A stretch of DNA of 64,000 nucleotides from an uncultured Candidatus Saccharibacteria bacterium. Its GTDB lineage: Bacteria; Patescibacteriota; Minisyncoccia; Phycocordibacterales; UBA918. Positions 6,378 through 60,157 of the stretch are shown here, one piece after another. The notes beneath the pieces are model-generated. The model did no database searches, was not told where the DNA came from, and worked only from the letters and a program-made list of their open reading frames with translations. Within the stretch, counting starts at the first letter, position 1. Each line of letters begins with the position of its first letter. Where the stretch lies: contig CAZXUO010000004.1 in the NCBI GenBank assembly GCA_964643955.1, forward strand, positions 3,882 through 67,881, in the 5' to 3' direction. The translations under genes and the position numbers were made by a program.

Positions 6378-6680
6378 TATACGCCACCGACAGGGGGTGT
6401 AAACTCAGGCGCGTATTCCGCGCGTTTTATACACGTACTGGCGTCAACTGTGTATAACCTGTTGAAAAGTCGATTTCATATATTCCCTCTTAGCGCCGTA
6501 CTGCATATTTTTCGTATCCGTGGGAGCCATTTTCACCATCTTCAATAACAAACGTCGGAACGTACGAAAAATATGCAGTACGGCGCTGAGGCTGTCTTGT
6601 AGAGTGCCTAAGATTTCTAAGTCGCTACACTCCTAGAAATCTATTGAAAAAATAGGAATATAGTGTATTGTGTTGGGACT
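6378..6680. promoter_or_regulatory. Divergent dnaA / rpmH promoter region with two opposed DnaA-box-like sites
   Basis: ttatacacg (6426-6434) and tgtgtataa (6448-6456); also contains repeat copy 2. Confidence 0.4.
6493..6586. repeat. Palindromic intergenic element, copy 2 (perfect 24-bp inverted repeat gcgccgtactgcatatttttcgta ... tacgaaaaatatgcagtacggcgc)
   Basis: Perfect 24-bp IR around a 46-bp core that matches the copy at 143-228. Confidence 0.65.
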
Positions 6681-6818
6681 ATGTCAAAGCGAACCTACCA
6701 GCCGAAGAAGAAAAAGCGGGCTACAACCCACGGTTTTTTGGTCCGTTCGGCTACTCCGTCAGGAGCCAAAATCCTCCGTGCACGACGCCGTAAGGGCCGC
6801 GCAAAGCTCACGGTCTAA
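6681..6818 (+). CDS. rpmH: 50S ribosomal protein L34
   Basis: [45 protein letters not shown]; below ORF-track size cutoff; rpmH-rnpA-yidC synteny. Confidence 0.9.
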
Positions 6819-6890: not shown

Positions 6891-7223
6891 ATGTTTCCCC
6901 AGGAAGAACGACTCACCCGAAGCCAGTTTGATGAGGCCTTTAAGCGTGGAATACGGGTCCACACGCCCTCGATGCTTTTTGTGTATGTCGAAGGAGGTAG
7001 TCGGAAAGGCGCCGTCGTTGTGTCAAAAAAAGTGGCAAAAAGTGCCGTGGCGCGCAATCGTTTGCGCCGACAGATCTATACGGTCCTCCGGGCATTAGGT
7101 CCTGCCCTCGGCACCAGTATCGTACTTTTGAAGTCAGCCCCCAAGGGCTCTTTTGGTGAACTACTCCTCGAGCTTGAGAGGGCTGCGTCGCGCGCGGTTG
7201 GTATAAGCGCTCGTTCGCGTTAA
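6891..7223 (+). CDS. rnpA: Ribonuclease P protein component
   Basis: 110 aa basic protein, ...KSAVARNRLRRQIY... RnpA motif; synteny. Confidence 0.85.
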   Translation: MFPQEERLTRSQFDEAFKRGIRVHTPSMLFVYVEGGSRKGAVVVSKKVAKSAVARNRLRRQIYTVLRALGPALGTSIVLLKSAPKGSFGELLLELERAASRAVGISARSR

Positions 7224-7224
7224 A

Positions 7225-7983
7225 ATGGCGGGTATGTTTTCATCCATTTGGCACGGGGTTTTCTTTGATCCTATTTACAACGGCCTTATTTTTATCCTCA
7301 ACCACGTACCGGGTGGCGACGTCGGTGTTGCGATCATTATTCTTACCGTCGTTATCAAGCTCCTCCTCCTTCCCCTTTCAGTACGTGCTACGAAAACACA
7401 GCACGCAATGCGTGAGCTCGAGCCAAAGCTCGCGGAGATAAAGGAGAAACACAAAGATGATCGAGAAAAACTCGCGCGCGAGACTATGGGTGCGTATAAA
7501 GAAGCGGGTGTGAACCCTTTTGCAAGTATCTTACTCATCCTCATCCAGCTGCCCGTCATTATTGCGCTCTATCTCTCGGTGTATCGCGGTGGTGGCGTAG
7601 CGCTCCCTGCTATCAATGTAGATCTTCTCTACTCGTTCGTACCAACACCCGAGACAGCGACGATGATGTTTCTTGGGTTTATGGATATTGCCGCACGGAG
7701 CTTCCCGCTCGCCTTTCTTGCGGGTGTGACGCAGTTTTATCACACACGACTTTCACTTCCCCCGCTTGCTCCTAAAGAAAAAGATGCGAAGCCAAGTTTC
7801 AAGGATGATTTCCAACGCAGCATGCAGATGCAGATGCGGTACGTGATGCCGATCATTATTTTCTTTGTGGCGTACACCATCTCAGCAGCGATTGCGCTCT
7901 ACTTCCTTGTGAGCAACCTGATGGCAATTGCGCAGGAGTATTTCATCAAGTGGCATGTGCCAGCACCGGAGAAAAAGGATTAA
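7225..7983 (+). CDS. yidC: Membrane protein insertase YidC/Oxa1 (short form)
   Basis: Polytopic, conserved YidC core (KLLLLPLSVRATKTQHAMRELEPK..., GVNPFASILLILIQLPVIIAL). Confidence 0.85.
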   Translation: MAGMFSSIWHGVFFDPIYNGLIFILNHVPGGDVGVAIIILTVVIKLLLLPLSVRATKTQHAMRELEPKLAEIKEKHKDDREKLARETMGAYKEAGVNPFASILLILIQLPVIIALYLSVYRGGGVALPAINVDLLYSFVPTPETATMMFLGFMDIAARSFPLAFLAGVTQFYHTRLSLPPLAPKEKDAKPSFKDDFQRSMQMQMRYVMPIIIFFVAYTISAAIALYFLVSNLMAIAQEYFIKWHVPAPEKKD

Positions 7984-8004
7984 ATTTAGAGGTAAATAGA
8001 GTAA

Positions 8005-8044
8005 AACAAAAGCCCGCGCACAAGTGCGCGGGCTTTTGTTTATT
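8005..8044. terminator. Bidirectional rho-independent terminator
   Basis: aaaagcccgcgcac-aagt-gcgcgggcttttg between convergent yidC and 8056-9279 gene. Confidence 0.7.
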
Positions 8045-8055
8045 ATGGACAATGA

Positions 8056-9279
8056 CTATTCTTCTCCCTCGGTCTGCTCGACGTCTTCCATAGAATCGGC
8101 GCTCGGCGTAATACTTTGCGGTAATTCCTGAAGCCACAACAGCCCATCACGCTTGTTGGTAAAGATAAGCATCGTGCTCGACGCATTTACATGCATGTCG
8201 AGAATATCAATTATTTCTCCAACGTCTTCGCTCGGTATGCTGATAAGTGCTGCACTTCCAGTATATGCATCTATTTCCCAAACCATATCATCGAGTGACG
8301 CTACTCCTTGATACCATGCATCAGGGTATTCCCCATTTATAGGAACTACAGATGCTCCGCACCAAAGAATATGTTCACGCTCTCTGTCTGCGGCACATTT
8401 CTCAGGGAAAACGGATACGGTAAGAGGTGTACTTGATGTAGCAGCCCCATAAGAGACAAGCGAGCCTTCGCTGGTAAGGAAAGTAGTTACGAACGAGCTT
8501 TTGGTGGGCGTGAGCATAAGACTCGTAACGCCGCCTGCAATTCTTTCAAACTCACTACCACGATATGCGTAACCAGGCACTCGCGCACTCGGTGTCGTAT
8601 ATGCAAGTATCTCTGGTTCCCAAGAAACTGTAATATCGCGGAGAACAGAATTAAAGAGCTCAATACGTGTGTTTGTTTTAAGATCGTATCGATAACCTGT
8701 GCTTCCAGCGGATGTCGGCATCAGGTAGTAAAGAACATCCCCATTCGATCCAAATGCGATGCTGCGTGATGCTCCGGGTAGTTCGGTGCTCGTAACGACC
8801 GTCTCGCCAGCATCATTTTTTTCGAGTGTATTTACAAATACTCGCTGTGTGACAGGAGATTCTTCTGCAGTAATAACAACTCGGTTTCCTTGCGGCGACC
8901 AGAACGCCTCAGTAGTCCGGGGGATGGTTATGTTTACAAGCCTAACGCCAGTTTGGGTGTCTGTATCTACTTCATATATATGTCCAGTTCCACGTTCGAC
9001 ATAACGTACTTTGGTTGTACCGTCTTGTTCAAAAATAATCGAACCGGCGACAGGTGTGGTGCTTATTTTTTTAAGGGCCGTAGATGTTTGTCTTTCTTCC
9101 TGAGTATCCTCCGTCACGTCCACTGGTACAAATTCATTTGACCCACCAAAAGAACCAAACGGATTTGGAATTCCTGAAAGACTTTCCGGTCGCCCATTCA
9201 TGAGGAGATACCACCAGGCTCCCCCTAATATGAGAATGAGGAGTATGATGCTTCCGATTATGATCCAAATTTTTTTCAT
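8056..9279 (-). CDS. Membrane-anchored beta-propeller-like (TolB/PD40-like) hypothetical protein; last gene of T4SS-like cluster
   Basis: N-terminal TM, repeated YRYD/GxxxY beta-strand-like blocks; no catalytic motif recognised. Confidence 0.35.
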   Translation of the reverse strand: MKKIWIIIGSIILLILILGGAWWYLLMNGRPESLSGIPNPFGSFGGSNEFVPVDVTEDTQEERQTSTALKKISTTPVAGSIIFEQDGTTKVRYVERGTGHIYEVDTDTQTGVRLVNITIPRTTEAFWSPQGNRVVITAEESPVTQRVFVNTLEKNDAGETVVTSTELPGASRSIAFGSNGDVLYYLMPTSAGSTGYRYDLKTNTRIELFNSVLRDITVSWEPEILAYTTPSARVPGYAYRGSEFERIAGGVTSLMLTPTKSSFVTTFLTSEGSLVSYGAATSSTPLTVSVFPEKCAADREREHILWCGASVVPINGEYPDAWYQGVASLDDMVWEIDAYTGSAALISIPSEDVGEIIDILDMHVNASSTMLIFTNKRDGLLWLQELPQSITPSADSMEDVEQTEGEE

Positions 9280-9282
9280 TTG

Positions 9283-10143
9283 TTAATTATTGTACCTAAT
9301 ACAATAGGCGTTTGTACCAATTATGGCTCCGCCGAACTCGTCCCTGATCATTTCTGTTTGTGGAATACCACCAGGCTTTGCTCGACATTCAGTCATGAAA
9401 TAGATGATGTCACTTTGTGGACCTCTTCCTATTGTTGCATTAGGTGCGTGAGTATATTGTCGTGAATCGAGAAGAGTTGTGGGAGCGGCTAGTTTTTCCT
9501 GGAAGGCCGCAGCCTCTTCTTGTGTCGGTTGGGTAATCGTCACCGGATCAGGTCTGGGATTTAAGAGGTCACCAGGACGCTGCTGTGTACTTGTCTCCAC
9601 CACCACCGCCGGCTCCGCAACGCTCTGCAGGGGCGACATTCTTTGCAGGATATCTAGGTTTAAAATATTTCTATTAATGGTCTGCAGTACCACGACTGTT
9701 GAGAGTATGATGAGAAGTCCTAGAAGTGAATTCTGTATATCCTTTTTGGCCTCTTCCTTTGAAAAAACCACATCAGATGACATGTATTTGACACCTGCCA
9801 CGATGATCTTTACAACAGCAATTAACGCCCCAATACCAACAGCGAGCCTGAATAGTACATTTATGTATTCAGGAAGTGTCCTGTTTGCACCATCGAGTCC
9901 CGGAAGATTGACGAGGGGTGTGTACACACCCTTTGCAGCTGGACCTTGCGCTGTATTACTGACAGTCGCTGGCTTGTTTTGGTTGACGTTATTACCCGGC
10001 ACAGTACTTTCGGGTGCTGTGTTCCCTATCGTTCCTTCAGGTCCCATGGGAATATATTCGTTTTCCTGGGCGTGGACAGCTCCGAAGAAAATCAAAAAAA
10101 TGAAGAGTGGACTAAATATTTTTACAAATGATGCTTTAGACAT
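9283..10143 (-). CDS. Pilin-like secreted protein, paralog A (signal peptide, Pro/Asn-rich linker, two hydrophobic helices, variable C-terminal domain)
   Basis: First 165 aa identical to 11303-12145 product; VirB2/TrbC-like hairpin of two hydrophobic helices (LFRLAVGIGALIAVVKIIVAGV / LLGLLIILSTVVVLQTI). Confidence 0.4.
   Translation of the reverse strand: MSKASFVKIFSPLFIFLIFFGAVHAQENEYIPMGPEGTIGNTAPESTVPGNNVNQNKPATVSNTAQGPAAKGVYTPLVNLPGLDGANRTLPEYINVLFRLAVGIGALIAVVKIIVAGVKYMSSDVVFSKEEAKKDIQNSLLGLLIILSTVVVLQTINRNILNLDILQRMSPLQSVAEPAVVVETSTQQRPGDLLNPRPDPVTITQPTQEEAAAFQEKLAAPTTLLDSRQYTHAPNATIGRGPQSDIIYFMTECRAKPGGIPQTEMIRDEFGGAIIGTNAYCIRYNN
9598..10077. repeat. 480-bp direct repeat, copy 1 (identical to 11597-12076)
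   Basis: Apparently 100% nucleotide identity over 5' halves of the two pilin-like genes. Confidence 0.8.
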
Positions 10144-10145
10144 AT

Positions 10146-11192
10146 CTAGTTAAAATGAATGGTGAACCTGCTTGTTGCAGATTGTAGGAGGGACTTAAGG
10201 TTCCGTATAGAGAAATCAATTTGTGTTGACCCAGTTGACCCAGACCTCCTTAGGGTGATTGTTTGGGGATCGTCATTTAGATTTTCAGCGGGCACCCCGT
10301 TTATATTCCATCCATATTGCGCGTTTTCAAATATACTTTTTGACATAAAGTACGGTTCAGCTCGAACACTTATTTCCTCACTGAGGAGCGTGATGTCTGA
10401 CGGTAGTGCATTTCTCGATAGCCCATGGAGAGGATTCTCTTCGTAAAAAATAATCCGAGGTTCTCTTGGAGTTATCTGTAAATAACCTGTATGTCGCGCA
10501 AGTCCGTCCGATGTTTCTGCTGTTAGTTCCACCAATGGTGTATCTGAGCGAGGCATGGTTGTAGTAAGTACGTTCATTCCGACGCCGGATTTAACAACTT
10601 GTGAGTTTATTTTCCAAGTGTAAATAAGGTTTTGTGTGCGAGCCACAGCACCGTTTGAGGTATAGATTGAAGGAAACGCAATGAGTCGAATGGTGCCGCC
10701 AGGACTCGGGAGGGAGCGTCCTCTGTAGAAATTAGGTATTTGTGTTTCACTTTCAACAATAATATCTATTGCACTTGGAATAATTGTCCGAGAAACGGTA
10801 TGGGCTAGACCACTTTGTTCGACTACTCGCACACTAATCTGAAGCGGGGTCCCAAGAGTCGGCGCGGTGAGAGATATTTCTTGCTGTCCAGCGTACTCAG
10901 AGACAGGTGTTCCATCAATGCTCCAAGTAATAGTCGCTCTATTTATGTCATAGGCATACGCTTCAACGCGCGCGACGAAGGGTCGTAACGCCTGTGGTGT
11001 TTCTGGGTTTGTAGTGAGGATTGTTTCACCGCCAGGAATTCCGATCTGTGCCGAGGCAACTGCGGTTGTTCCTATAAAAAAAAGAATCGTAGCAAGTAAG
11101 ACAAAAAATGAACGTATCCAATACACTCTCGATTTGACAGTATGCATACTATTTGAGCTTATTGTATCTTCAACAAATGTTTTTGTCCTCAT
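10146..11192 (-). CDS. Secreted hypothetical protein with Ig-like/beta-sandwich repeats (alternative start 11147)
   Basis: Signal peptide (MHTVKSRVYWIRSFFVLLATILFFIGTTAVASAQ), repetitive beta-rich sequence; lies between the two pilin-like paralogs. Confidence 0.4.
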   Translation of the reverse strand: MRTKTFVEDTISSNSMHTVKSRVYWIRSFFVLLATILFFIGTTAVASAQIGIPGGETILTTNPETPQALRPFVARVEAYAYDINRATITWSIDGTPVSEYAGQQEISLTAPTLGTPLQISVRVVEQSGLAHTVSRTIIPSAIDIIVESETQIPNFYRGRSLPSPGGTIRLIAFPSIYTSNGAVARTQNLIYTWKINSQVVKSGVGMNVLTTTMPRSDTPLVELTAETSDGLARHTGYLQITPREPRIIFYEENPLHGLSRNALPSDITLLSEEISVRAEPYFMSKSIFENAQYGWNINGVPAENLNDDPQTITLRRSGSTGSTQIDFSIRNLKSLLQSATSRFTIHFN

Positions 11193-11302
11193 TGGTTGTC
11201 CTCATAGTTAGCTCCTCGCTCTAGGTAAGTATTATATTTAGTCGTTATATACGTAGATTCGTCGTAAAAAGCATAAATGCCCCCTGCTTGATATCAAGCC
11301 GT

Positions 11303-12145
11303 TTAGGGGTTGAGACCGAGAATCTCTGCACAGCCTGCCTTTAAGGGAGGAGGATTTTTGACAAGATAGTTTGGAATTTCACACTGCATGACAGATCCAT
11401 CAGTTGTTTGTCGTGAGTGCATGGTTCCACCCTTACAAGAGCACTCAGCTCGCTTGTCACGAATGACGGCTGTCTGTCCTGAAGTTGATCCAGAAAGGCC
11501 ACCTGAAAAATCAATGGTGACCCCAGAGGAGGAGGCCATTCTTTGAAGATCTTCGTTTGGGGGCACGTCTACGAAGATTGCTGTCGGCGCCGGTTCCACC
11601 ACCACCGCCGGCTCCGCAACGCTCTGCAGGGGCGACATTCTTTGCAGGATATCTAGGTTTAAAATATTTCTATTAATGGTCTGCAGTACCACGACTGTTG
11701 AGAGTATGATGAGAAGTCCTAGAAGTGAATTCTGTATATCCTTTTTGGCCTCTTCCTTTGAAAAAACCACATCAGATGACATGTATTTGACACCTGCCAC
11801 GATGATCTTTACAACAGCAATTAACGCCCCAATACCAACAGCGAGCCTGAATAGTACATTTATGTATTCAGGAAGTGTCCTGTTTGCACCATCGAGTCCC
11901 GGAAGATTGACGAGGGGTGTGTACACACCCTTTGCAGCTGGACCTTGCGCTGTATTACTGACAGTCGCTGGCTTGTTTTGGTTGACGTTATTACCCGGCA
12001 CAGTACTTTCGGGTGCTGTGTTCCCTATCGTTCCTTCAGGTCCCATGGGAATATATTCGTTTTCCTGGGCGTGGATGGTATTGAATGGAATAAGTAGTGA
12101 AAAAAGAATACCCACTGCAGTAAAAAATTTATAAAGATCTAACAT
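11303..12145 (-). CDS. Pilin-like secreted protein, paralog B (Cys-rich variable C-terminal domain)
   Basis: Same N-terminal module as paralog A, different about 100-aa C-terminus (CSC...C...C); hairpin plus T tract downstream (11250-11300). Confidence 0.4.
   Translation of the reverse strand: MLDLYKFFTAVGILFSLLIPFNTIHAQENEYIPMGPEGTIGNTAPESTVPGNNVNQNKPATVSNTAQGPAAKGVYTPLVNLPGLDGANRTLPEYINVLFRLAVGIGALIAVVKIIVAGVKYMSSDVVFSKEEAKKDIQNSLLGLLIILSTVVVLQTINRNILNLDILQRMSPLQSVAEPAVVVEPAPTAIFVDVPPNEDLQRMASSSGVTIDFSGGLSGSTSGQTAVIRDKRAECSCKGGTMHSRQTTDGSVMQCEIPNYLVKNPPPLKAGCAEILGLNP
11597..12076. repeat. 480-bp direct repeat, copy 2
   Basis: See 9598-10077. Confidence 0.8.
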
Positions 12146-12154
12146 AGTATTAAC

Positions 12155-12643
12155 TCAATCAGAGCGTATGATTCTGCGTCGGAGGCGCATGGTATTTGTA
12201 GGCATACTTTCTTCGCGTTTCTTTTTTTCTTCGGCATCCTCACGCCTGACAATATAAATTTGGACGATGGTCCAGATAGTTATTCCAGGGAGCACATTCA
12301 GAAAGGGCATAAAATCAACAAGGAGCGCAATGAAACTCGTCGTTACTTTTCTTAGCACATATTCCCCCTTCATGAAGGAAACTCCTGAGAGGAGAAACCA
12401 TAAAATGAGGGTGAGGTAGCCCATCCCGATAATAGCCCACGAAAGGACGCTCTGTGTTGCTGTGGCTAAAAACATAAGTGCTGCAGCTGCAAGTCCGCCA
12501 AAAAAAGGGATCCATGATGCAAAAAAGCCCACAACTGACGCCATGAGCAATATAATTCCAGTCGCGAATTGTGCCAGATCAAACCCCAGGGCGATCACAA
12601 TCATGAGAGCAGCCTTTGTTTTGGAGATCCTCTCTTCTCTCAT
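12155..12643 (-). CDS. Small polytopic membrane protein (4 predicted TM) downstream of VirB4
   Basis: Hydrophobic profile; start overlaps the VirB4 stop by 4 nt. Confidence 0.35.
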   Translation of the reverse strand: MREERISKTKAALMIVIALGFDLAQFATGIILLMASVVGFFASWIPFFGGLAAAALMFLATATQSVLSWAIIGMGYLTLILWFLLSGVSFMKGEYVLRKVTTSFIALLVDFMPFLNVLPGITIWTIVQIYIVRREDAEEKKKREESMPTNTMRLRRRIIRSD

Positions 12644-14466
12644 TGTGTGCGATTTAATTCATCCATATCCCTTCGCTCCTTCTTGATCTGGAGAAGTTGG
12701 GATGGATCGGAGGTGATGATTTGGTCTTCGGTGTACGAGGCAATGATTTTAATCGCGACATGCTTAAGCCCTGCAAAGAAGATTCCCTCCCCTACGCCCG
12801 ACTCGAGCAGTAAGAACTTCTCTTCATCAGTGAGATTGAAGGTTTCTTGTACGCGATCGATCGAGGTCGGCGACTGCTTCATGAGGAGTTGGATCGAGGA
12901 GTTCGTCAGCATCGGTACGCCGTATGGAGAGCGGAGGAAGTCGTCGACGTCTTGAGTAATAGTCGAGAGACCGAGATAGTATTTGCGTCCGCGTTTTGCA
13001 ATACCATAGAGGAATGAAGCAGTATCTTCTGATTTCATCATCCACCACGCTTCGTCGATGACGAGGAGGCGCTTCTTGAGTGTGCGACGGATCGCGCTCC
13101 AAATGAAGTGTGTAATGATGTACATCGCGACCGTCTTGAGCTCGTCCTCCATGTCACGAAGCGAAAATACAACAAACTTTTGTTCGATGTCGACATTGGT
13201 CGCTTGGTTCATGAAGCCTGCCCACGTACCCTTTGTGTACTTCGTGAGACGCTGTACAAGTGACTCACTTCCCTCCATACCAGCGAGCACCATCTCAAAA
13301 TCAGAAAGAAGTGGTGGTTCGAGGCTCGAGAAGTCGCTGTCGCCCGTGATGTCTTTGAGTGCGTATGTCTCAGTAATAGCGCGGTCGATGATGGCGTCTT
13401 CTTCAGGTGTGAGCCCTGAAAGCATGATGCGGAAAAGACCGACGAGCGAAATGATGTGTGAGCGAAGGATGTCTTGCGGTGACTCGTCCTGCTGAGGTTT
13501 CGGAAGATCGAACGGATTGATGTGGTGGTTTGATGAGAGAGAAATATTGAAAAAGCGTCCACCGGTCGCTTCGGCAAGATATTCGTATTCTCGTTCAGGG
13601 TCGATGACGATGACTTCTGCACCAAACATGAGTGAGCGAAGAATCTCGAGTTTTGCAGCGTACGACTTACCCGAACCAGAAGTGGCAAAGGTTACGGAGT
13701 TGTAGTTCTCGAGCGAGAAGCGATCAAAGAGAATGAGCGAGGAATTGTGGCGATTGATGCCGTAGAGGATGCCGGTGTCTGCGGTGAGGTCAAATGAAGT
13801 GAATGGGAAGAAGCTCGAAAGCGGTGATGAATTGAGCTTGGTGTGCACCTCGAGTAAGTCGGTTGCAATCGGCATGACGCTTTTGAAGCCTTGTTCTTGT
13901 TGGAAAAGTGCAGGTTTGAGATACACGAGACGTGCGTCGAGCACCGCCTTGATCTCCCCTATCGTCTTTTCGATATCATCGTCAGTGTTTCCGTAGATTG
14001 CAAAATAGAGACCCACATTGAAGAGACGTTCCTCTGCTTGTTGGAGCTTGTCGCGAAGCTCCTCAAGGTTTCTATACGCAGCGTCGAGCTGTGGGTCGCG
14101 CACGAAGCCTTTTTCTGCGCGGACATTAATCTGGCTCTGCACTTCGGCAACCTTCTTTTGGAATTTCTTTAGAACCTCCGCCGTGTCCATAGGGTGGACG
14201 ACGATCGAGACATCAAATACCCGTTCGAGGTTGAGGATCGGCTCGAGCCAGCCGTCGTTGAGGTATCGCGGGAACGAAATTGCAAAGAAGGTACGTACGA
14301 GCTTTCCGCTCAAATTGATTTCTTGTGGCGTGATACCGACTGCCGATGGTGCAATCACGTCTTCAAGCGACATTACGCTCGCGTTTTCAATGTCGCGCGG
14401 AAGCACTGAAGAAAGGATGTTTTCTTCTTCAGGCTCTTTCTTTTTTATAAAATCAAATATTCCCAT
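12640..14466 (-). CDS. virB4: VirB4/TrbE/CagE-type T4SS ATPase (C-terminal 608 aa including ATPase domain)
   Basis: Walker A TSGSGKSYAAK, Walker B LLVIDEAWWMM, conserved VirB4 blocks (FFxxSFPRYL, IITQD). Confidence 0.8.
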   Translation of the reverse strand: MGIFDFIKKKEPEEENILSSVLPRDIENASVMSLEDVIAPSAVGITPQEINLSGKLVRTFFAISFPRYLNDGWLEPILNLERVFDVSIVVHPMDTAEVLKKFQKKVAEVQSQINVRAEKGFVRDPQLDAAYRNLEELRDKLQQAEERLFNVGLYFAIYGNTDDDIEKTIGEIKAVLDARLVYLKPALFQQEQGFKSVMPIATDLLEVHTKLNSSPLSSFFPFTSFDLTADTGILYGINRHNSSLILFDRFSLENYNSVTFATSGSGKSYAAKLEILRSLMFGAEVIVIDPEREYEYLAEATGGRFFNISLSSNHHINPFDLPKPQQDESPQDILRSHIISLVGLFRIMLSGLTPEEDAIIDRAITETYALKDITGDSDFSSLEPPLLSDFEMVLAGMEGSESLVQRLTKYTKGTWAGFMNQATNVDIEQKFVVFSLRDMEDELKTVAMYIITHFIWSAIRRTLKKRLLVIDEAWWMMKSEDTASFLYGIAKRGRKYYLGLSTITQDVDDFLRSPYGVPMLTNSSIQLLMKQSPTSIDRVQETFNLTDEEKFLLLESGVGEGIFFAGLKHVAIKIIASYTEDQIITSDPSQLLQIKKERRDMDELNRTQ

Positions 14467-14468
14467 AG

Positions 14469-15110
14469 TTATACCGGCAATGCCTTGTTACTTTCTGCAG
14501 GGTTGAAGAGGTGATAAAAGAGCTCGATTATTTCGTTGGTGCCGAGGGTGACAGTGCGTACGCCGATGCGGCTAAGTCCTTGCGTAACGACCGCAACGCG
14601 CTGCTCGATCTGAGTGCGGTCTTCATCGAAGCGTGCAAGTGATTCGGTATCTGCCTCGGAAGATGATTTTGTTCGGAAGACGTTTCCGAGTCCGCTAATT
14701 CCCCCACTGAGATTGAGTGTTGAGGGTGTGTATGAAATCACGACAAAGAAACTTTTTGTCATAATTTCGACTTCATTGGTGAGGTTCTCGACAAAGCCAA
14801 TGTATTCACGGAGCTGGACGCGCATGAGGTCATTGTCTTGTGCAGGCTCTCGCTCTCGAAGTAGTGCGAGGTACGGCTGGATATTGAGCCGGCGCGACTG
14901 CACATATATTTGGAGTGAAAAATCGAGTGTGTTGAGGAATGATTGAAATTGCGCAAGGATCGCATGCTGTTCGTCCTGTGATTTAAGCGCGAAGTTGATT
15001 GACGAAACCATGAGTATTGCGCGCATACTGCCATCTTTCAAGATTGCGATATCATCGCGGATCTCCTTTAGTGGTACAAACTCTTGTGCTGCTGGTGTGC
15101 TGCGTGCCAT
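14469..15110 (-). CDS. VirB4 N-terminal domain encoded as separate ORF (split gene or frameshift)
   Basis: PLKEIRDDIAILKDGSMRAILMVSSINFALKSQDEQ pattern typical of the N-terminus of monoderm VirB4/TcpF-like ATPases; stop TAA, 2 nt, then ATG of 12640-14466; combined 821 aa with Walker A near 470. Confidence 0.5.
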   Translation of the reverse strand: MARSTPAAQEFVPLKEIRDDIAILKDGSMRAILMVSSINFALKSQDEQHAILAQFQSFLNTLDFSLQIYVQSRRLNIQPYLALLREREPAQDNDLMRVQLREYIGFVENLTNEVEIMTKSFFVVISYTPSTLNLSGGISGLGNVFRTKSSSEADTESLARFDEDRTQIEQRVAVVTQGLSRIGVRTVTLGTNEIIELFYHLFNPAESNKALPV

Positions 15111-15113
15111 ATG

Positions 15114-15512
15114 TTATTTGTCTTTTTTTAGCGCGTTGAGTTCCAACTTTCGTGACAGCGAGGCGATGTTGTTTGAGGTTGGTGGTGTGTAGAGTGGCGT
15201 ACTACCGGCATACGAAGAAGTTACTGGCTTTTTATCAGTTTTTTTCCAGAGATAAAGTCGTGTTGAGCTAATGTAGCGGATCGCTGATTCAACAAAGACC
15301 GAAAGTGGCCGGTTGTTTACGGGGAAAAATGCAAGACCAGCAGCAAGAGCCATAATAGGCCCGGCAATAACCAAAAAAAGCAAGAACGGCAAGAGTATAT
15401 ACAGCATCACCCCAGCTCCTGCTCCACCTGCGAGGTAGATAAATTGCTTCCACGTAAAGGGACCGAAGATTTTGTCCTCCACTTCAATAAATTGTGGTAC
15501 TTCAAAACGCAT
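15114..15512 (-). CDS. PrgI-family (VirB3-like) small membrane protein
   Basis: MRFEVPQFIEVEDKIFGPFTWKQFIYLAGG... matches PrgI N-terminal motif, two TM helices, immediately upstream of VirB4. Confidence 0.55.
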   Translation of the reverse strand: MRFEVPQFIEVEDKIFGPFTWKQFIYLAGGAGAGVMLYILLPFLLFLVIAGPIMALAAGLAFFPVNNRPLSVFVESAIRYISSTRLYLWKKTDKKPVTSSYAGSTPLYTPPTSNNIASLSRKLELNALKKDK

Positions 15513-15568
15513 AACGATATCTCAAGTATACATCTTCGCACTCCATCGACCGACAAAACACGTGCGGA

Positions 15569-16135
15569 TTACGCGTGCGGCGGCACCGGGGGTGGTGAGG
15601 GTGGTAATGGAGACGAGGTTGGTACTACGGGAGTAGCAGAAGGTACTGGTGTTTGTACGGGAGTGTCTTGATATCGAGGTACGGCCATGAGTGGTTTTTG
15701 GTAACTTGGGACCGCATGCATTGGTTTATGTTGAGTTTCAATCTGAGGAGTAGGTATGCCTGATGCTGATGAATCAGAAGATGGTTTGTTTTCTTCCTCA
15801 AACTTATTGCGTTCTGTATAGACAGCATCAAGGATTGCTCGAATTTCAGGAGTAAAGACTCGCTCTGTAATAGTGGTTGTAACTTTTCGCGCAATCTCAA
15901 CTCGATTCTCGAGGAGAGCAAGGATACGTGTTGGGAAATCTGTGTATTCACGATACGCAAGTAGAACAAACACAATCTCGTCTTCAATCTCTCGAATCTT
16001 TTGTTCAGAAAGGCCGTTTTCCGAACCAACTTCCTGTATCTTTTCAGCGAGATCGGGCGCGAGTAGAGCTTCCTGAAGTACTTCAGGAAGCTCTCTCAAC
16101 CGCTCAGATAATTTTTTTATTGTGTCTTCATTCAT
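15569..16135 (-). CDS. Hypothetical protein with Pro-rich C-terminus
   Basis: ORF only; no recognisable domain. Confidence 0.3.
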   Translation of the reverse strand: MNEDTIKKLSERLRELPEVLQEALLAPDLAEKIQEVGSENGLSEQKIREIEDEIVFVLLAYREYTDFPTRILALLENRVEIARKVTTTITERVFTPEIRAILDAVYTERNKFEEENKPSSDSSASGIPTPQIETQHKPMHAVPSYQKPLMAVPRYQDTPVQTPVPSATPVVPTSSPLPPSPPPVPPHA

Positions 16136-16140
16136 AGGTT

Positions 16141-18171
16141 TTAATCCTCAGAGTCCTTCTTCCTCGCTTCTTTTAGTGCCGCAAGGAGGCTCTCCTCGCG
16201 CTTTTCTTCGGGTGTTTTCTTTCGGTCTTTCTCAATTGCTTCTGCCGCTGCGGCATTTTCTGCTTTCGTTTGTCGCAAGAAGCTTGGCGAGAATGAACCG
16301 CCGCGCTTCAATACCTCCGCATAATTTCTTTGACGCTCACCTTTGACCTTAGCGACTTCAGTTGCACGCTCAGTGAGTAGGCGCTTCTTCTCTTCTTCTC
16401 GCTCGTTTATTTCAACATTATGTTCAGCTTCAACTTGCTCGACCTGTAATTTCTGTGCATCTGCCTGTGCGCGGTATGCAGCACGCTCTCCCTCAGTAAG
16501 GCTTCTATCACCAGCCTGTCTCAAGAGATTTGAAAGTGTTTGTTTTTCTCGTGTCACCGCTTGAGTTTTTGCACGCTGGCGCACTTTAATATCTGCTTCG
16601 AGATTTTCTATCTGCTCTTTATGGAGCACCTCGGCTTTCTTAACTGCCTCTGTATCTTGACCAAGTGATTTTGCAAACTCAGTTTCCTGCTTAATGATAT
16701 CTTTTTGACGCTGCTCGTAGCCTCCCTTCTGAGGTTTTCCAAGATCGAGGCCGCTGAGTTTGGCGAGACCTGTTTTATCGAGCGTGGCGCGTACATCAAA
16801 ACTACTTTTAGCGACATAGCGGCTGCTCTTTAGAGCTGCTTTTGCTGCAAGGCCGCGCACGCCACCTTTGCTGGCAGCGTTATTGAGTGCTTCCGAATTA
16901 TTCGTGATATTTCCCAAGCGCCCAATAGTGTTTCTGCCGAGCGCCCCAACGGTTCCCGCTGCAAGGCGCGCGCCCATGCGAGTTGAAAAGTTGGCACCAT
17001 ATGCTCCCATTTGTTTTGCGACAATAAGTGATGCGACCATGAGGACTATAGTGAGACAAAAGAATGCAGCAGTAGTAAATCCTTTTTGTGCACCATTACC
17101 TACGAAGACCCCATCAAAATTTTGCGTTGCTGCGGTGTAGCCCTCAGCCACTTTCATGGTGAGGTAGAGCATGAAGAAAAGTGCAGGCGCAAAGAAAGCT
17201 TGTTCGAAAAGCGTCTTCCACCACTTTTTTGACCAGCTTTCAAGTGCAGGGAATACGCTTGCAGCAAATGCAATAGGAGAAAGCATCATAATAATGAGGA
17301 GTACCCCGAAGCGTATTGCTATAAGTAATGCAGCTGCAGCAAATACAAACGAAGCTGCGATCACGAATATCGCAATCCCAATAACAAATGGAATCATTGC
17401 GTCCCCGTCCGTGTTCCAACCGCCGACTTTCTTAACCATCGAATCTTTATGATTCGGATCAGGAACGGCAATGAGTCTAATGAGGCCCATTTGCGCCATG
17501 AAGGCTTCTCCGGCGTTAAGACCAGCGAGATTGGTCCCTTGGGCATTTTCGCCGATGCCCATATTATTATAAATTTGGATTGCTGTGACATTTGAGACAT
17601 CGATGACAACCTTTGAAATAAAGAGACTGAAATTGACAAGGAGTGCCCCCATAATTATCGATGTGAGCATTTTTTTGGTATCACTCCCGACATTTAAAAT
17701 AGTTCTGAAACCTACGTATACAAGACCGAATATAAATGTAAGATTGACCAGGTCGCGCACAATACTCCATATAAGATCAACACTTTGAGCAAGAGGGCCT
17801 TGTATCCAATAGCCCATTCCGAGGATGAAGTGTTCGATCGCTGCATTAAATAGGCTAACGGTAATATAGAGAACGTAGCCGACGATACCGATAATAAGTC
17901 CACTAATGCTCCATGATGGAATTATTTCCATTTTTTCGCCGGTTGAGCTCCGAGTTGCTGCGCCTAAAGCGGGATCATTTTTGACTTGCTCTAGCGTGAC
18001 TGCGCTTCCTATATCACCTCGTCCTTGGTTTATACCGATTGGGGAATAGTCAGGAGCCTCACCTGGATCGGGTTGTTGCGCGCGCACTACCAGAGGAGAG
18101 AATAAGGCGAATATTCCTGATATTAAAAGTATCAGGAGAGGTGCACTTATTTTAATAAAAGTGTTATTCAT
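16141..18171 (-). CDS. VirB6/TrbL-like polytopic membrane protein with C-terminal charged coiled-coil extension
   Basis: Signal peptide plus at least 6 TM segments and a long K/E-rich C-terminal tail; position in T4SS-like cluster. Confidence 0.45.
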   Translation of the reverse strand: MNNTFIKISAPLLILLISGIFALFSPLVVRAQQPDPGEAPDYSPIGINQGRGDIGSAVTLEQVKNDPALGAATRSSTGEKMEIIPSWSISGLIIGIVGYVLYITVSLFNAAIEHFILGMGYWIQGPLAQSVDLIWSIVRDLVNLTFIFGLVYVGFRTILNVGSDTKKMLTSIIMGALLVNFSLFISKVVIDVSNVTAIQIYNNMGIGENAQGTNLAGLNAGEAFMAQMGLIRLIAVPDPNHKDSMVKKVGGWNTDGDAMIPFVIGIAIFVIAASFVFAAAALLIAIRFGVLLIIMMLSPIAFAASVFPALESWSKKWWKTLFEQAFFAPALFFMLYLTMKVAEGYTAATQNFDGVFVGNGAQKGFTTAAFFCLTIVLMVASLIVAKQMGAYGANFSTRMGARLAAGTVGALGRNTIGRLGNITNNSEALNNAASKGGVRGLAAKAALKSSRYVAKSSFDVRATLDKTGLAKLSGLDLGKPQKGGYEQRQKDIIKQETEFAKSLGQDTEAVKKAEVLHKEQIENLEADIKVRQRAKTQAVTREKQTLSNLLRQAGDRSLTEGERAAYRAQADAQKLQVEQVEAEHNVEINEREEEKKRLLTERATEVAKVKGERQRNYAEVLKRGGSFSPSFLRQTKAENAAAAEAIEKDRKKTPEEKREESLLAALKEARKKDSED

Positions 18172-18174
18172 AGG

Positions 18175-19623
18175 TTATTCTCCCCCGCTTTGACCGCCTC
18201 CTGGGGTTCCGCAAAGATTATTGAGTTGACTTGCGATCTGACCTAACTGGATGACGAGCTCATCGGTCCGGAACTTTTCTTGTGCGTTTGTGAAGCTGGT
18301 GTGGAGTCGACCGCTTGCACGGAGTTCAGAAAGTTCCTGTACAATATTGATTTTCTCTTCGTCTGATGCGGTGTTGTATTCAGACTGGAGACTTCTTAGG
18401 AGAGAAAGGTTTGCGTCAGCATCGTTTTGCTTCTGGAGAGCTTCGTTAAGAATAGGATTTGTTTGGTTGATGATATTAGTCGCATTGCTGCACGAACTAT
18501 TTGACTGTGCTTGCACAATGATCGCTTGTGCGCGAGAAACTACATTTGCATAGAGTGCACGATATGCATTTTCATCATTGATCGCTGTACCGAAGAGACC
18601 ATCGTCTTCTTCTGTTATTGGAGCGCCTCCAATATATTCGTCAAAGTTGGTGTTTCCCATTCGATCAATATAAGATGTGTTGCCGTAGCTGCCACCGGTA
18701 CTTGTAAGTCCAAGCAGTCCAGCAGCACCCTGAAGTGCTTGTTGTGCAAGTTGTGCAAAGAGTGCGCTTATAATCTCGTTAATTTCGTCAGCATTAAGAA
18801 GTGCGCGTTTGCCAGTTGAGAGCTCGAAAGTAAGCATCTCTGAGATAGCCTTGCCGGGCATGGTGATGGTGCAGTTTTCTTGCTCTCCAACCGCAGTACA
18901 AGCAGCTTTCGACAAGAAACCATTTCCCCAATTGAGTTTACTGAGGTCGAGGGTGATTCGATTGTTGACACGTTCTATGAGAAGACGCTGCGTAGATGCT
19001 TGTACTCCGAAGAAATTGTTATTTGGATTTGTGGTGAGTTCGAGCCATCCTTCCATGCCTCCCGCGAGGAAATTTCCTCCAAGGAATCTGTTGACTGAAT
19101 TTTCTGCGTTTCCAATAGCACTACTGAGGGTACATTGTATGCGGCGCGCAGCACTTGCGCGGTAGTTGAGTTGGAGTCCGAGGCGGATATCAAGCTCAAA
19201 GGGTGAACATAAGAAACCAAGCTCGGTGCCGTAGATAATTTCTCCGGCGGCTTGGTCAGCGACATTTATAAGGAAAGCTTCTAAGTCTGCGACAAACGCA
19301 GGACTTCCTTTAAAACCTGAGTTGATCCAACGAATGAGGCTTCGTTGCATCTGGAGAAGTACCTGTCGTCCAATAAAGAAGAGAATACCATCGAGCGAAA
19401 ACTCTTTCAGCACCAGCGATTCGAGACCGAGTGCCGCGGCAACATCTGCGACAGCAGAGATTGTGCTTTGTATAAGGTTGCCTCCAACCTCCACTACCGG
19501 TTCCGCCGCTACGGTTTTTTTAGGTGTTGCAAGGCCCATCATCGATACGATCATCACGATGAATAGGAATCCAGTAAGTCCTTTCTTTCCAAACTCGACG
19601 ATTTTGTGTAGATGCATCTGCAT
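18175..19623 (-). CDS. Membrane-anchored/secreted hypothetical protein (T4SS-like cluster)
   Basis: N-terminal TM, no catalytic motifs recognised. Confidence 0.35.
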   Translation of the reverse strand: MQMHLHKIVEFGKKGLTGFLFIVMIVSMMGLATPKKTVAAEPVVEVGGNLIQSTISAVADVAAALGLESLVLKEFSLDGILFFIGRQVLLQMQRSLIRWINSGFKGSPAFVADLEAFLINVADQAAGEIIYGTELGFLCSPFELDIRLGLQLNYRASAARRIQCTLSSAIGNAENSVNRFLGGNFLAGGMEGWLELTTNPNNNFFGVQASTQRLLIERVNNRITLDLSKLNWGNGFLSKAACTAVGEQENCTITMPGKAISEMLTFELSTGKRALLNADEINEIISALFAQLAQQALQGAAGLLGLTSTGGSYGNTSYIDRMGNTNFDEYIGGAPITEEDDGLFGTAINDENAYRALYANVVSRAQAIIVQAQSNSSCSNATNIINQTNPILNEALQKQNDADANLSLLRSLQSEYNTASDEEKINIVQELSELRASGRLHTSFTNAQEKFRTDELVIQLGQIASQLNNLCGTPGGGQSGGE

Positions 19624-19624
19624 A

Positions 19625-20527
19625 CTATTGCTTCAGGCTAGAGAAGAAATATCCAGGTTCCTCGGCAGTGTAGACAACGCCGCGTGCCTCAAGTGCATCA
19701 CGAAAATTGAGTAGTGTGAGGGCAAGGCCGCGCACGTCTTCTTGGTATCGCTGTGTGTGCATGAGCGCCGGTATTGGGTCCTCAAACGCTAGTTGCATTG
19801 CTGCAATATCAGCACGAACCATACTTAGTGTATTTACAAAATCCGTATGTTCTTTTGCAAGCACGTTTGGTACTTCTACTTGAAGTAGCTCTTGAATCAT
19901 TGCAGCATAGCCTTGCTCAATAGGAGAAAGTGACTGAAGAATGGCCGAATCTTCGTGTTGAAACGCGCGCTGGAGAATAACCATCTCGTTTTCTTTTGGA
20001 GCTGGATATTTTTCTATGATTGTACTTATTGCATTTCCGTATGCGCGAATTGAGGAAAGGTCATTATTTAAAACAATACGCATCTGCGCCTGGGTATAGA
20101 GCGTGTCTTTGATTTCGCCCTTGATAGTTTGTGCAGCCCGTTGGGCCACTTGAAGTTTTTCTTCTTCACTTATTTCACGTCCCGCTCCAGTGCGAAGCAT
20201 ATCCTCAAGAAATTGTTCGGAGAATTTGCCAGTGAGGGTGGTAGGAGGCGTGTACTCTTCTTCGAGTTCAGTGGCTTGAGTCGTTGATGCAAACGTTGTA
20301 AACGTCAGTGGATCAGTGTTTTGCAGCTCTTCTTCCCAGTCGGGCATGCCGTCGCCGTCAGTATCGGTACTGGTCTGGACTGAGCGTACGGTGTCGTTTG
20401 CGACGACGAGTGCAGGAGAAGTTGCAGCTTGGCTATCAGCGATGCCGTTGTGTTCTATATAAAATGCTCCGCCGATCAATGCGGCTCCAATGAGTAGTGC
20501 GCCTCCTACGCGAAAAATGCTTTCCAC
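19625..20527 (-). CDS. Membrane-anchored hypothetical protein with DTDGDGMPDWEE Ca-binding-like motif
   Basis: N-terminal TM; thrombospondin-type-3-like DxDxDG motif. Confidence 0.35.
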   Translation of the reverse strand: MESIFRVGGALLIGAALIGGAFYIEHNGIADSQAATSPALVVANDTVRSVQTSTDTDGDGMPDWEEELQNTDPLTFTTFASTTQATELEEEYTPPTTLTGKFSEQFLEDMLRTGAGREISEEEKLQVAQRAAQTIKGEIKDTLYTQAQMRIVLNNDLSSIRAYGNAISTIIEKYPAPKENEMVILQRAFQHEDSAILQSLSPIEQGYAAMIQELLQVEVPNVLAKEHTDFVNTLSMVRADIAAMQLAFEDPIPALMHTQRYQEDVRGLALTLLNFRDALEARGVVYTAEEPGYFFSSLKQ

Positions 20528-20626: not shown

Positions 20627-21424
20627 TTATGAAAGTTCACGTGCGAGTGCGCACCATGTGTCGATAGAAAGATCCTCCCCACGCGCTTTTGGTGAGATGG
20701 AAAGTTTTTCAAATGTTTGTTCGAGGCGACTTTTTTCGCAGATCGTTGAAAGATTCCCGAACAACTGCTTTCGGCGAGCAGCAAATCCTGCGTGCAGCAC
20801 GGTAAAGAACCATTCTTCGGTAAAACCATTAAAACGGCCGCGAGAAATATCAGAAATTGCGAGAATTGCCGAATCGACAGCCGGCGGCGGCGCGAAATTG
20901 CCTCGAGAAACAGTATCTACGTACCGCGGTGTACCAAATACCTTGACGGAGAGAGACAAAAGCGACTCTTTTTCGCTTCGAGCCACCCGGAGCGCGACCT
21001 CTTTTTGGACAAGGAAAACCACGCATTGGGGCTGATGCACGGCACTGAGTGACGTCCGGATGAGCATCCCTGAAAGGTAGTATGGAATGTTGGCAACAAT
21101 AGAATAATCCTTATATTGAGCCATAAAATCGGTGATATCGCGGTCGCGTACGTCGGTGTGGTGGAGTATAAGCCGTCCATCGGCAATCTCCTTTTCAAAG
21201 CGCTCATTAAGCACCTCGATCGCACGAAGGTCAGCCTCAAGCGCCACTACCTGCGCTCCTGCCGCAAGGAGTGCCTCGGTAAGGGCGCCGGTCCCTGGCC
21301 CAACTTCAAGCACGATATCCCCTTTTTTGAGGTTGGCTGCCTCCACAATCTTCAAAACGACCTTTGGATTGGTCAAAAAGTGCTGTCCGAGCGATTTTTT
21401 GGCTTCAATGCTGTGTTTTTTCAT
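20627..21424 (-). CDS. rsmA: 16S rRNA (adenine1518/1519-N6)-dimethyltransferase RsmA/KsgA
   Basis: LGQHFLTNPKVVLKIVEAANLKKGDIVLEVGPGTGALT SAM-binding motif. Confidence 0.9.
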   Translation of the reverse strand: MKKHSIEAKKSLGQHFLTNPKVVLKIVEAANLKKGDIVLEVGPGTGALTEALLAAGAQVVALEADLRAIEVLNERFEKEIADGRLILHHTDVRDRDITDFMAQYKDYSIVANIPYYLSGMLIRTSLSAVHQPQCVVFLVQKEVALRVARSEKESLLSLSVKVFGTPRYVDTVSRGNFAPPPAVDSAILAISDISRGRFNGFTEEWFFTVLHAGFAARRKQLFGNLSTICEKSRLEQTFEKLSISPKARGEDLSIDTWCALARELS

Positions 21425-23391: not shown

Positions 23392-23617
23392 AAAAAGGGG
23401 CTGTATCGGCAAAACTATAGCACGTACCAATACAAAACATACAGAAAGTAATGTCAATGTGCCAAAATAGCCCCAAAATACAGGCTGATATGGGCATGGG
23501 GATACCGTGGGGACAATACTGCATTGACCACTTCGTGGGGTCATCTATAGTGTCTAGGTTGCTTCTGAACGACTGATTGGCAGTACTTGGGCGGGCGGCC
23601 CCGGTGAGTTGCCTCGC

Positions 23618-25451: not shown

Positions 25452-25487
25452 AAAAGGCCCGCGGCTATGCCGCGGGCCTTTTCTTTA
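25452..25487. terminator. Bidirectional terminator
   Basis: aaaaggcccgcggc-tat-gccgcgggcctttt. Confidence 0.65.
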
Positions 25488-55104: not shown

Positions 55105-55107
55105 TGT

Positions 55108-56334: not shown

Positions 56335-56341
56335 TACACCT

Positions 56342-58090: not shown

Positions 58091-58092
58091 AC

Positions 58093-58704: not shown

Positions 58705-58729
58705 GATAACGAGTCGTTTTGGGTGAAGG

Positions 58730-60154: not shown

Positions 60155-60157
60155 TGT

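Follow-up and report, generated by a model that had tools for sequence, protein, structure and literature searches.

Patescibacteria are ultra-small, have little biosynthetic capacity and live off host cells, and their type IV secretion systems (T4SSs) are among the few machines likely to explain how they do so. In the stretch of DNA analysed here, 64,000 nucleotides in full and referred to below as the window, a run of minus-strand genes filling positions 8056-20527 resembles such a system, and the question it raises is whether these genes form a conjugative element, a new apparatus, or a known machine of the cell. The initial annotation had described a T4SS-like cluster repurposed for DNA uptake or host-cell interaction, most of whose components might define new families. 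We found that the cluster is real and biologically important but an ordinary, well-preserved member of the Patescibacteria-clade T4SS, a widespread system already described in 2023-2025 and encoded close to the replication origin in almost all Patescibacteria; it is not a new system, and the initial annotation had re-derived a published one. In our judgement, the cluster is very likely chromosomal, vertically inherited and origin-proximal, with the Paceibacteria layout, and not a conjugative element.

We first describe the layout of the locus. Twelve open reading frames (ORFs) of 132-676 aa, all in the same direction, fill the interval, and they were numbered g1-g12 in the order of transcription (Table 1). 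ORF calls confirmed that a co-directional minus-strand cluster follows rsmA, itself identified by its RrnaAD match. The gene total is 12 and not the 13 counted previously, because no intergenic gap has room for a further gene. The spacing from rsmA to g1 is 99 nt, and the junctions within the cluster range from -4 to +9 nt, except for 56 nt at g4/g5 and 110 nt at g9/g10, so the packing of the cluster is operon-like. The cluster is bounded by rsmA (ksgA) on one side and by an intrinsic terminator on the other. This terminator, whose strength the initial annotation had noted correctly, sits between g12 and the convergent yidC. A scan for sigma-70-like promoters was uninformative, with 20 sites found against 18.5 expected.

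The product of g7 was identified as a VirB4 ATPase. It scored 363.9 bits against the NCBIfam model NF045971 (VirB4-like conjugal transfer ATPase, CD1110 family; cut-off 325) and matched the Pfam family P-loop_TraG (PF19044) at 8e-26, above the gathering score. Its closest solved structure was the C-terminal domain of Thermoanaerobacter VirB4 (PDB 4AG5, 1e-41), and it aligned to residues 300-741 of TrwK at 1e-5. Both the Walker A motif (ATSGSGKS, aa 261-268) and the Walker B motif (LLVIDEAW, aa 467-474) are present. Homologues in Paceibacteria are about 600 aa long and 71-100% identical, while the nearest plasmid-borne VirB4s, from Firmicutes and Actinobacteria, are at most 34% identical. The protein covers positions 181-733 of the 752 in NF045971, and about 180 residues at the start of a canonical VirB4 are absent.

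Directly upstream of g7, separated from it by 2 nt (TAA, 'ct', ATG) and in a different reading frame, lies the TrsD-like g6. Its product matches the N-terminal parts of the profiles VirB4_plasma (105-234), CD1110 (2-99) and VirB4_CagE (3-175), and also positions 18-175 of Pfam TraC_F_IV. An in-frame stop or recoding within a single VirB4 gene was considered and rejected, because the two frames differ and the split is conserved across loci. Among the 79 related loci having g6, almost all encode it as a separate ORF of 206-223 aa, so the two genes were already apart in an ancestor and the split is no sequencing error. VirB4 is a genuine two-gene arrangement here, consisting of TrsD and the ATPase. 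The earlier identification of a VirB4 with Walker A and B motifs was correct as far as it went, but it had overlooked the split and the separate g6.

Two membrane proteins accompany the ATPase. The PrgI/VirB3-like assignment of g5 was upheld by a Pfam match above the gathering score, and orthologues of g5 occur in 77 of the 80 loci compared below. The g3 protein comprises a signal peptide, about six transmembrane (TM) segments and a C-terminal tail of 236 aa, in which 93 residues are charged (50 K/R and 43 D/E). As a single sequence it fell slightly under the threshold for Pfam TrbL (8.4e-5) and matched NCBIfam CD3337/EF1877 at 1.2e-4. A family profile of 31 orthologues matched TrwI/VirB6 (PDB 7O3V) at 8.3e-6 over 230 residues, and 8 of these orthologues matched TrbL individually, the best at 1.8e-8. 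These results agree with the previous description of a VirB6-like protein with a long charged tail.

We then compared the locus with its relatives. A scan of one genome per species yielded 571 confirmed VirB4 relatives, from which 80 loci (L001-L080), ranked by VirB4 similarity, were taken; synteny was judged only in loci whose contigs reach far enough. The order uvrD-rsmA-g1-g2-VirB6-(g4)-PrgI-TrsD-VirB4-(g8)-g10-pilin-g12, with yidC, dnaA, dnaN and pbp beyond g12, was found in most of these 80 Paceibacteria loci, and it was seen in Kaiser-, Nomura-, Campbell-, Taylor- and Zambryskibacteria. Homologous clusters therefore occur elsewhere in the lineage. In the window, the flank on the yidC side consists of ruvC, a class A penicillin-binding protein (PBP) gene, dnaN, dnaA, rpmH, rnpA and yidC, and that on the rsmA side of rsmA, uvrD/pcrA and more housekeeping genes. 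Since gene order and housekeeping flanks recur across genomes, we conclude that the core operon is inherited vertically and is not a mobile element. Judged from its sequence, the source organism belongs to the candidate phyla radiation (CPR)/Patescibacteria, class Paceibacteria.

The proteins of the locus differ widely in conservation. Over the 80 loci, ranked as stated by VirB4 similarity, the median identity was 73% for VirB4, 58% for DnaA, 57% for PBP, 54% for both UvrD and TrsD, 48% for PrgI, 47% for RsmA and YidC, and 39% for DnaN, with the surface proteins of the cluster at 27-38%. This pattern indicates a core motor under strong constraint, with fast-evolving exposed parts. That VirB4 is better conserved than DnaA underlines the machine as a core cellular function in the class.

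Table 1. Features of the T4SS locus and its surroundings, by position in the window
Feature	Position	Strand	Description and basis
g1	19625-20527	-	First cluster gene, 300 aa; N-terminal membrane anchor, TSP3-like DxDxDG calcium-binding motif
g2	18175-19623	-	482 aa, membrane-anchored, predicted extracytoplasmic, mostly helical; conserved cluster member
g3	16141-18171	-	Extended VirB6/TrbL-like polytopic membrane protein; TrbL and family-profile matches
g4	15569-16135	-	188 aa, cytoplasmic, Pro-rich C-terminus; poorly conserved, no TM segment
g5	15114-15512	-	Small PrgI/VirB3-like membrane protein; PF12666 4e-10, 40.5 bits (gathering score 27)
g6	14469-15110	-	TrsD-like, detached VirB4 N-terminal part, 213 aa; NCBIfam TrsD NF041427, 3.9e-9
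g7	12640-14466	-	VirB4 ATPase, CD1110/MPF_FATA type, 608 aa; NCBIfam, Pfam and PDB matches
g8	12155-12643	-	162-aa polytopic membrane protein, 4-5 TM; start overlaps virB4 stop by 4 nt
g9	11303-12145	-	VirB2-like pilin paralogue 1, 280 aa; PF18895 1.5e-7, 31.8 bits (gathering score 26.6)
g10	10146-11192	-	348 aa, membrane-anchored, three immunoglobulin (Ig)-like (beta-sandwich) modules; family profile and alignment
g11	9283-10143	-	VirB2-like pilin paralogue 2, 286 aa; PF18895 2.8e-7, 31.0 bits (gathering score 26.6)
g12	8056-9279	-	Last cluster gene, 407 aa; N-terminal TM anchor and 7-bladed beta-propeller; AlphaFold2 and Foldseek
Intrinsic terminator	8004-8041	-	17-pair stem (9 G-C pairs), 4-nt loop, then T-rich tail
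Repeat copy A	9596-10076	.	Linker and pilin core of g11; 481 bp, 100% identical to copy B
Repeat copy B	11595-12075	.	Linker and pilin core of g9; direct repeat, offset 1999 bp
dnaN	3629-4732		
dnaA	4983-6377		
rpmH	6663-6818		
rnpA	6891-7223		
yidC	7225-7983		
rsmA	20627-21424		RrnaAD 1e-46; upstream of cluster
LysM-M23 gene	23609-24757	+	Wall hydrolase, LysM (2-3 copies) and Peptidase_M23; 3 kb upstream of cluster, past uvrD
ComM-like gene	25485-27002	-	Mg-chelatase-family ATPase (competence-associated)
610-aa ORF	27409-29241	-	After ComM-like gene; no Pfam/NCBIfam match
Tyrosine recombinase gene	30476-31438		
Type IV pilus cluster	53350-61693	+	PilB-like T2SSE ATPase, PilC-like T2SSF, CarboxypepD_reg-domain protein, N-methyl prepilin

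The arrangement corresponds to the published system. Quinonero-Coronel et al. (2025, Microb Genom, PMC12102498) reported VirB4 in 2,417 of the 3,035 Patescibacteria genomes surveyed and placed almost every one of these proteins in a single clade nested in MPF_FATA, with TrsD, PrgI/VirB3, VirB6 and VirB2-like pilins adjoining virB4. In Paceibacteria the cluster adjoins dnaA, dnaN, ksgA, rnpA and rpmH, and the system was judged to be repurposed from conjugation; relaxases were present in only 103 Patescibacteria genomes, and VirD4-like genes in 2,918, mostly unlinked to virB4. Wang et al. (2023, Cell, PMC10633639) used transposon sequencing to show that the T4SS genes and pilin array of Southlakia are essential for epibiotic growth, and noted that coupling and relaxase proteins are missing in that system. 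When ORFs of at least 120 aa in the 64-kb window were searched against Pfam and NCBIfam, no type IV coupling protein (T4CP), relaxase or VirB7/9/10 family was found. The initial annotation was therefore right that no VirD4 or relaxase is encoded among these ORFs, and its statement that the apparatus lacks a coupling protein is valid for the window only. The type of VirB4, the presence of TrsD, PrgI/VirB6 and pilins, the absence within 64 kb of relaxase, T4CP and VirB7/9/10, and the origin-proximal context all agree with membership of the Patescibacteria clade, as judged by profile scores and identities. The earlier proposal of a repurposed T4SS is thus supported by synteny, by the lack of a local relaxase or T4CP, and by PMC12102498.

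Besides motor and translocon, the cluster encodes four accessory proteins, g1, g2, g10 and g12, which lack Pfam models of their own and are conserved cluster members throughout the class. They had been listed as anchored proteins of unknown fold; the anchoring was confirmed, and two of the four now have confident fold assignments. The AlphaFold2 model of g12 (pLDDT 91, pTM 0.82) matched WD40 and TolB-type propellers in Foldseek at about 1e-8, some g12 homologues bear PD40/PF26549 domains, and orthologues are present in 67 of the 80 loci. For g10, with orthologues in 73 loci, the family profile matched the Ig-like domains of T4 Hoc (3SHS) at 8.9e-6; three 'W..NG' modules were seen in the alignment consensus, and a match to BiPBP_C was sub-threshold (6.3e-5). 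The g1 protein has one N-terminal hydrophobic segment and a sub-threshold TSP3_bac match (8.5e-5), and its syntenic orthologues, found in 44 of the 80 loci, are about 27% identical. In the g2 protein four Cys are conserved and the motif WINSGFxGxPxFV is invariant; its family numbers 5,952 cluster representatives at 50% identity, although no relatives were found in Pfam, NCBIfam or PDB sequences. A helical adhesin of the VirB5 or T3SS-tip type was among the candidates considered for g2. Profile searches with g1 and g2 against PDB sequences returned noise only (SKI7 at 0.01; calmodulin EF-hand loops at 0.14 or weaker). The suggestion that components could define new families holds for these four in that they have no Pfam models, but they are already abundant, conserved CPR proteins.

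The two remaining non-pilin genes, g4 and g8, matched no Pfam or NCBIfam family. By tblastn, g4 was found in only 8 of the 80 loci. Sequence similarity to g8 was detectable in only 2 loci despite positional equivalents: in most of 68 loci checked, the position after virB4 is occupied by an ORF of about 110-400 aa with 2-5 TM segments, and about 10 loci have none. The protein at this position may belong to the machine as a membrane component that evolves rapidly.

The pilin candidates g9 and g11 both scored above the gathering score of PF18895, confirming the two VirB2-like genes proposed earlier, and g9 also matched the NCBIfam Mbov_0395 pilin-like family of a Mycoplasma integrative and conjugative element (ICE) at 1.3e-6. 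The g9 protein begins with a signal peptide and a linker, followed by a two-TM pilin core; its C-terminal tail of 122 aa contains four Cys. The g11 protein shares this core, but its signal peptide differs and so does its tail, which has 129 aa and two Cys; the linkers of the two measure 76-81 aa. Overall the proteins are 59% identical, and in their tails only 17 positions are identical among 127 aligned. At the DNA level, the 481-bp repeat spans the linker at the mature N-terminus together with the two-helix core, leaving signal peptides and tails outside, and its identity ends abruptly on both sides. Since most relatives carry a single pilin after g10, g9 is the extra copy. Intra-genomic pilin-core repeats were also found in other multi-pilin genomes (L014, L039, L048 and L076), mostly 93-99% identical, with a third copy in L048 at 75%. 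These findings suggest recurrent gene conversion or recent duplication of pilin cores.

The perfect repeat could be an assembly artefact. Three deposited proteins (P0001, P0121 and P0228, from 'Candidatus Pacebacteria bacterium'), which match g7, g2 and g12 with 97-100% identity, lie on contigs of only 4-6 kb, a length that would fit a pilin repeat breaking short-read assemblies. An exact-sequence look-up of g10, intended to find an independent contig across both pilin repeats, showed that the protein is not on record. The three deposited proteins are named 'DUF87 domain-containing protein' or 'hypothetical protein', and the T4SS is not flagged in their public annotation.

We also examined the tails of the pilin-like proteins more widely. 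In 56 loci, the tail following the pilin core had a median length of 168 aa and a range of 12-356 (e.g. L023, L030 and L049), and most tails had an even number of Cys, up to 20. Long, often Cys-rich tails are general in Paceibacteria T4SS pilin-like proteins, whereas canonical VirB2 pilins have no such C-terminal tail. A VirB2/TrbC conjugative pilin is a polymerising two-helix protein of about 70-120 aa when mature; g9 and g11 share the two-helix core but are 280 and 286 aa long. The tails may be host-binding modules. We would only tentatively go further and regard the Paceibacteria VirB2-like proteins as modular host-recognition subunits, with a conserved core and exchangeable, disulfide-stabilised C-terminal domains, a reading that we think doubtful. 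Gene conversion would then keep the cores of multiple pilin copies alike while their tails diverge, and by recombining with each other the direct repeats could change which tail is displayed or shuffle the tails, or could delete the Ig-like gene g10 lying between them. If true, this would be a mechanism of host-range or antigenic variation comparable to pilin cassette or tail-fibre switching.

From these components we propose how the Patescibacteria-clade T4SS of this locus might work. The TrsD-like g6 and the ATPase g7 would reconstitute a full, two-piece VirB4, for which g5 (PrgI/VirB3) and g3 (the extended VirB6) would be the docking partners at the cytoplasmic membrane; the four proteins together would form the translocon and pilin-extraction motor. 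Sec would insert the pilins g9 and g11, and after their extraction from the membrane they would polymerise as a pilus or short tube, the exterior of which the variable tails would decorate, because the C-terminus is outside in the VirB2 topology. The anchored proteins g1, g2, g10 (Ig-like) and g12 (propeller) would form or stabilise a wall-spanning, surface-exposed part that replaces the VirB7/9/10 core. By homology with the Saccharibacteria system, on which epibiotic growth depends, the machine would be a contact-dependent conduit between epibiont and host cell. A 2025 review (PMC12857230) likewise speculated that the T4SS pilus is a conduit, and a 2026 preprint reported feeding on host RNA together with tubular structures, which may be T4SS pili, at a parasite-host interface. 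As to what is carried, we slightly favour import of host macromolecules over effector export or adhesion alone. In rough terms, import of host macromolecules or nutrients is a substantial possibility that falls short of even chances, effector export is a somewhat smaller one, attachment alone is unlikely, and the remainder goes to other functions.

Several points weigh against this reading. The literature shows neither substrate nor transport direction for Patescibacteria T4SSs, and the essentiality data come from Saccharimonadia (Southlakia epibionticum, PMC10633639) and not from Paceibacteria. The roles given to g1, g2, g10 and g12 have conserved synteny, membrane anchoring and fold as their only basis, and the AlphaFold2 model of g2 is of moderate confidence (pLDDT 69). 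Canonical pilus packing might not accommodate tails of 12-356 aa; the pilin-like proteins would then be membrane-anchored surface proteins. The ranking of the loci by VirB4 similarity somewhat exaggerates the contrast between VirB4 and the housekeeping proteins.

A first alternative is that the cluster builds only an adhesive surface filament or anchor, with VirB4 as its assembly ATPase and nothing translocated. The long variable pilin tails with their mostly even Cys numbers do resemble binding modules, Ig-like and beta-propeller folds, both typical of interaction proteins, occur among the accessory proteins, rapid change in the surface parts contrasts with a conserved motor, and no coupling protein lies nearby. 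However, an extended VirB6 with a large cytoplasmic tail, as encoded here, is the channel component in T4SSs that translocate substrates, Ptl and Brucella VirB secrete substrates without a T4CP, and the window holds a separate type IV pilus system, of a kind already implicated in Saccharibacteria adhesion. We therefore consider a purely adhesive function unlikely.

A second alternative, and an improbable one, is a competence-type T4SS that, like Helicobacter ComB or archaeal Ced, imports DNA for nucleotides or genes. DNA uptake was one of the uses named in the initial annotation, and import of DNA or other macromolecules was raised as a hypothesis in PMC12102498; we found no direct support for it. 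A VirB4 without a relaxase would fit such a system, as would the ComM-like gene and the type IV pilus cluster in the window. The weak similarity of g7 to CedB (2e-7) and CedD (2.5e-4) points the same way, but these matches cover the generic P-loop only and are far under the cut-offs, and none of the cluster genes was recognised as coding for a DNA-binding or nuclease component. In Southlakia, moreover, transformation needs comEC, yet comEC is dispensable for growth (PMC12857230) and the T4SS is essential, so the essential role of the T4SS is not ComEC-linked DNA uptake.

The last alternative is a conventional conjugative T4SS that would export the DNA of its own ICE, with the relaxase, coupling protein and oriT located beyond the window. 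This is suggested by the CD1110 family of g7, found in Firmicutes conjugative transposons, by the ICE or plasmid counterparts of the TrsD, PrgI, pilin-like and VirB6-like genes, by the tyrosine recombinase gene, and by the frequent location of T4CP genes far from virB4. It was rejected on synteny and is highly improbable: housekeeping genes flank the cluster on both sides and its order is kept in most of the 80 genomes, across several Paceibacteria orders, VirB4 is more conserved than DnaA, no relaxase or T4CP family occurs within 64 kb, relaxases are as rare in Patescibacteria as cited above, the GC content of the cluster is only slightly under that of its neighbours, and the recombinase is XerC/D-like and lies 10 kb off amid housekeeping genes.

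We also inspected the surroundings of the cluster. Cumulative GC skew is lowest near 2-4 kb, beside dnaN/dnaA, and rises steadily to 64 kb; if this minimum is oriC, the lagging strand carries the T4SS operon together with rsmA and uvrD, and their transcription runs head-on to replication. A search for DnaA boxes gave 17 matches against 10.2 expected, with no cluster beside dnaA, and was of no use for placing oriC. No VirB1 hydrolase and no VirB8/PrgL was recognisable in the cluster. A LysM-M23 gene occupies the equivalent relative position in at least 10 related loci, and its product could serve a VirB1-like wall-opening function or could merely be a division hydrolase. A minus-strand ORF at 23554-24156 ('x200') was rejected as a gene, being more likely an antisense shadow of the plus-strand LysM-M23 gene. 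The type IV pilus, the other host-adhesion machine, is reported to be essential in Saccharibacteria; in the window its cluster also encodes two proteins of about 500 aa without a family.

The locus thus provides a clean and complete Paceibacteria example of the Patescibacteria-clade T4SS with a full parts list, including four conserved anchored accessory proteins and two mosaic pilin genes, and these parts could serve as a guide for structural studies by cryo-ET or AF-multimer and for genetic work on those few Paceibacteria that can be cultivated.

Finally, we compared the cluster with known systems. With Agrobacterium VirB/D4 and R388 Trw it shares the functions of VirB2, VirB3, VirB4 and VirB6 through homologous proteins; unlike them, it has a split VirB4 and a monoderm envelope, and VirB5, VirB7, VirB8, VirB9, VirB10, VirB11 and VirD4 were not detected here. 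Bordetella Ptl, Brucella VirB, Helicobacter ComB and archaeal Ced resemble it in having no nearby or dedicated coupling protein and relaxase and in their non-conjugative use, but they show no specific sequence kinship to it past the VirB4 P-loop, and their accessory gene sets differ. The MPF_FATA conjugative T4SSs (pGO1 Trs, pCF10 Prg, the Clostridioides difficile conjugative transposon of the CD1110 family, and the Mycoplasma ICE) share with it a CD1110-family VirB4, PrgI, a CD3337/EF1877- and VirB6-like membrane protein, an Mbov_0395-like pilin and the lack of an outer-membrane core, and a separate N-terminal VirB4-like gene, TrsD, is common to pGO1 and this cluster. Unlike these systems, the cluster is a fixed chromosomal core operon with no relaxase, T4CP, oriT or element borders in the window, its VirB4 has the low identity to plasmid copies given above, and its pilins have large, predicted extracellular tails.

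The Patescibacteria-clade T4SS, of which Southlakia epibionticum SEML1_0006-0019 is the studied example, agrees with the cluster in having VirB4 with adjacent TrsD, PrgI/VirB3, VirB6 and VirB2-like pilins, in its chromosomal place beside dnaA, dnaN, ksgA/rsmA, rnpA and rpmH, and in having no relaxase or T4CP nearby and no VirB7/9/10. Differences are confined to details. In Southlakia a peptidase or lysozyme is encoded directly downstream of virB4, whereas here there is none at that place and the LysM-M23 gene lies upstream of the cluster on the other strand. The main text of PMC12102498 does not mention long pilin tails, or g1, g2, g10 and g12 as class-wide members. The pilins described here, 59% identical and with a perfect 481-bp core, exceed the maximum identity of 54% given within arrays in that paper.

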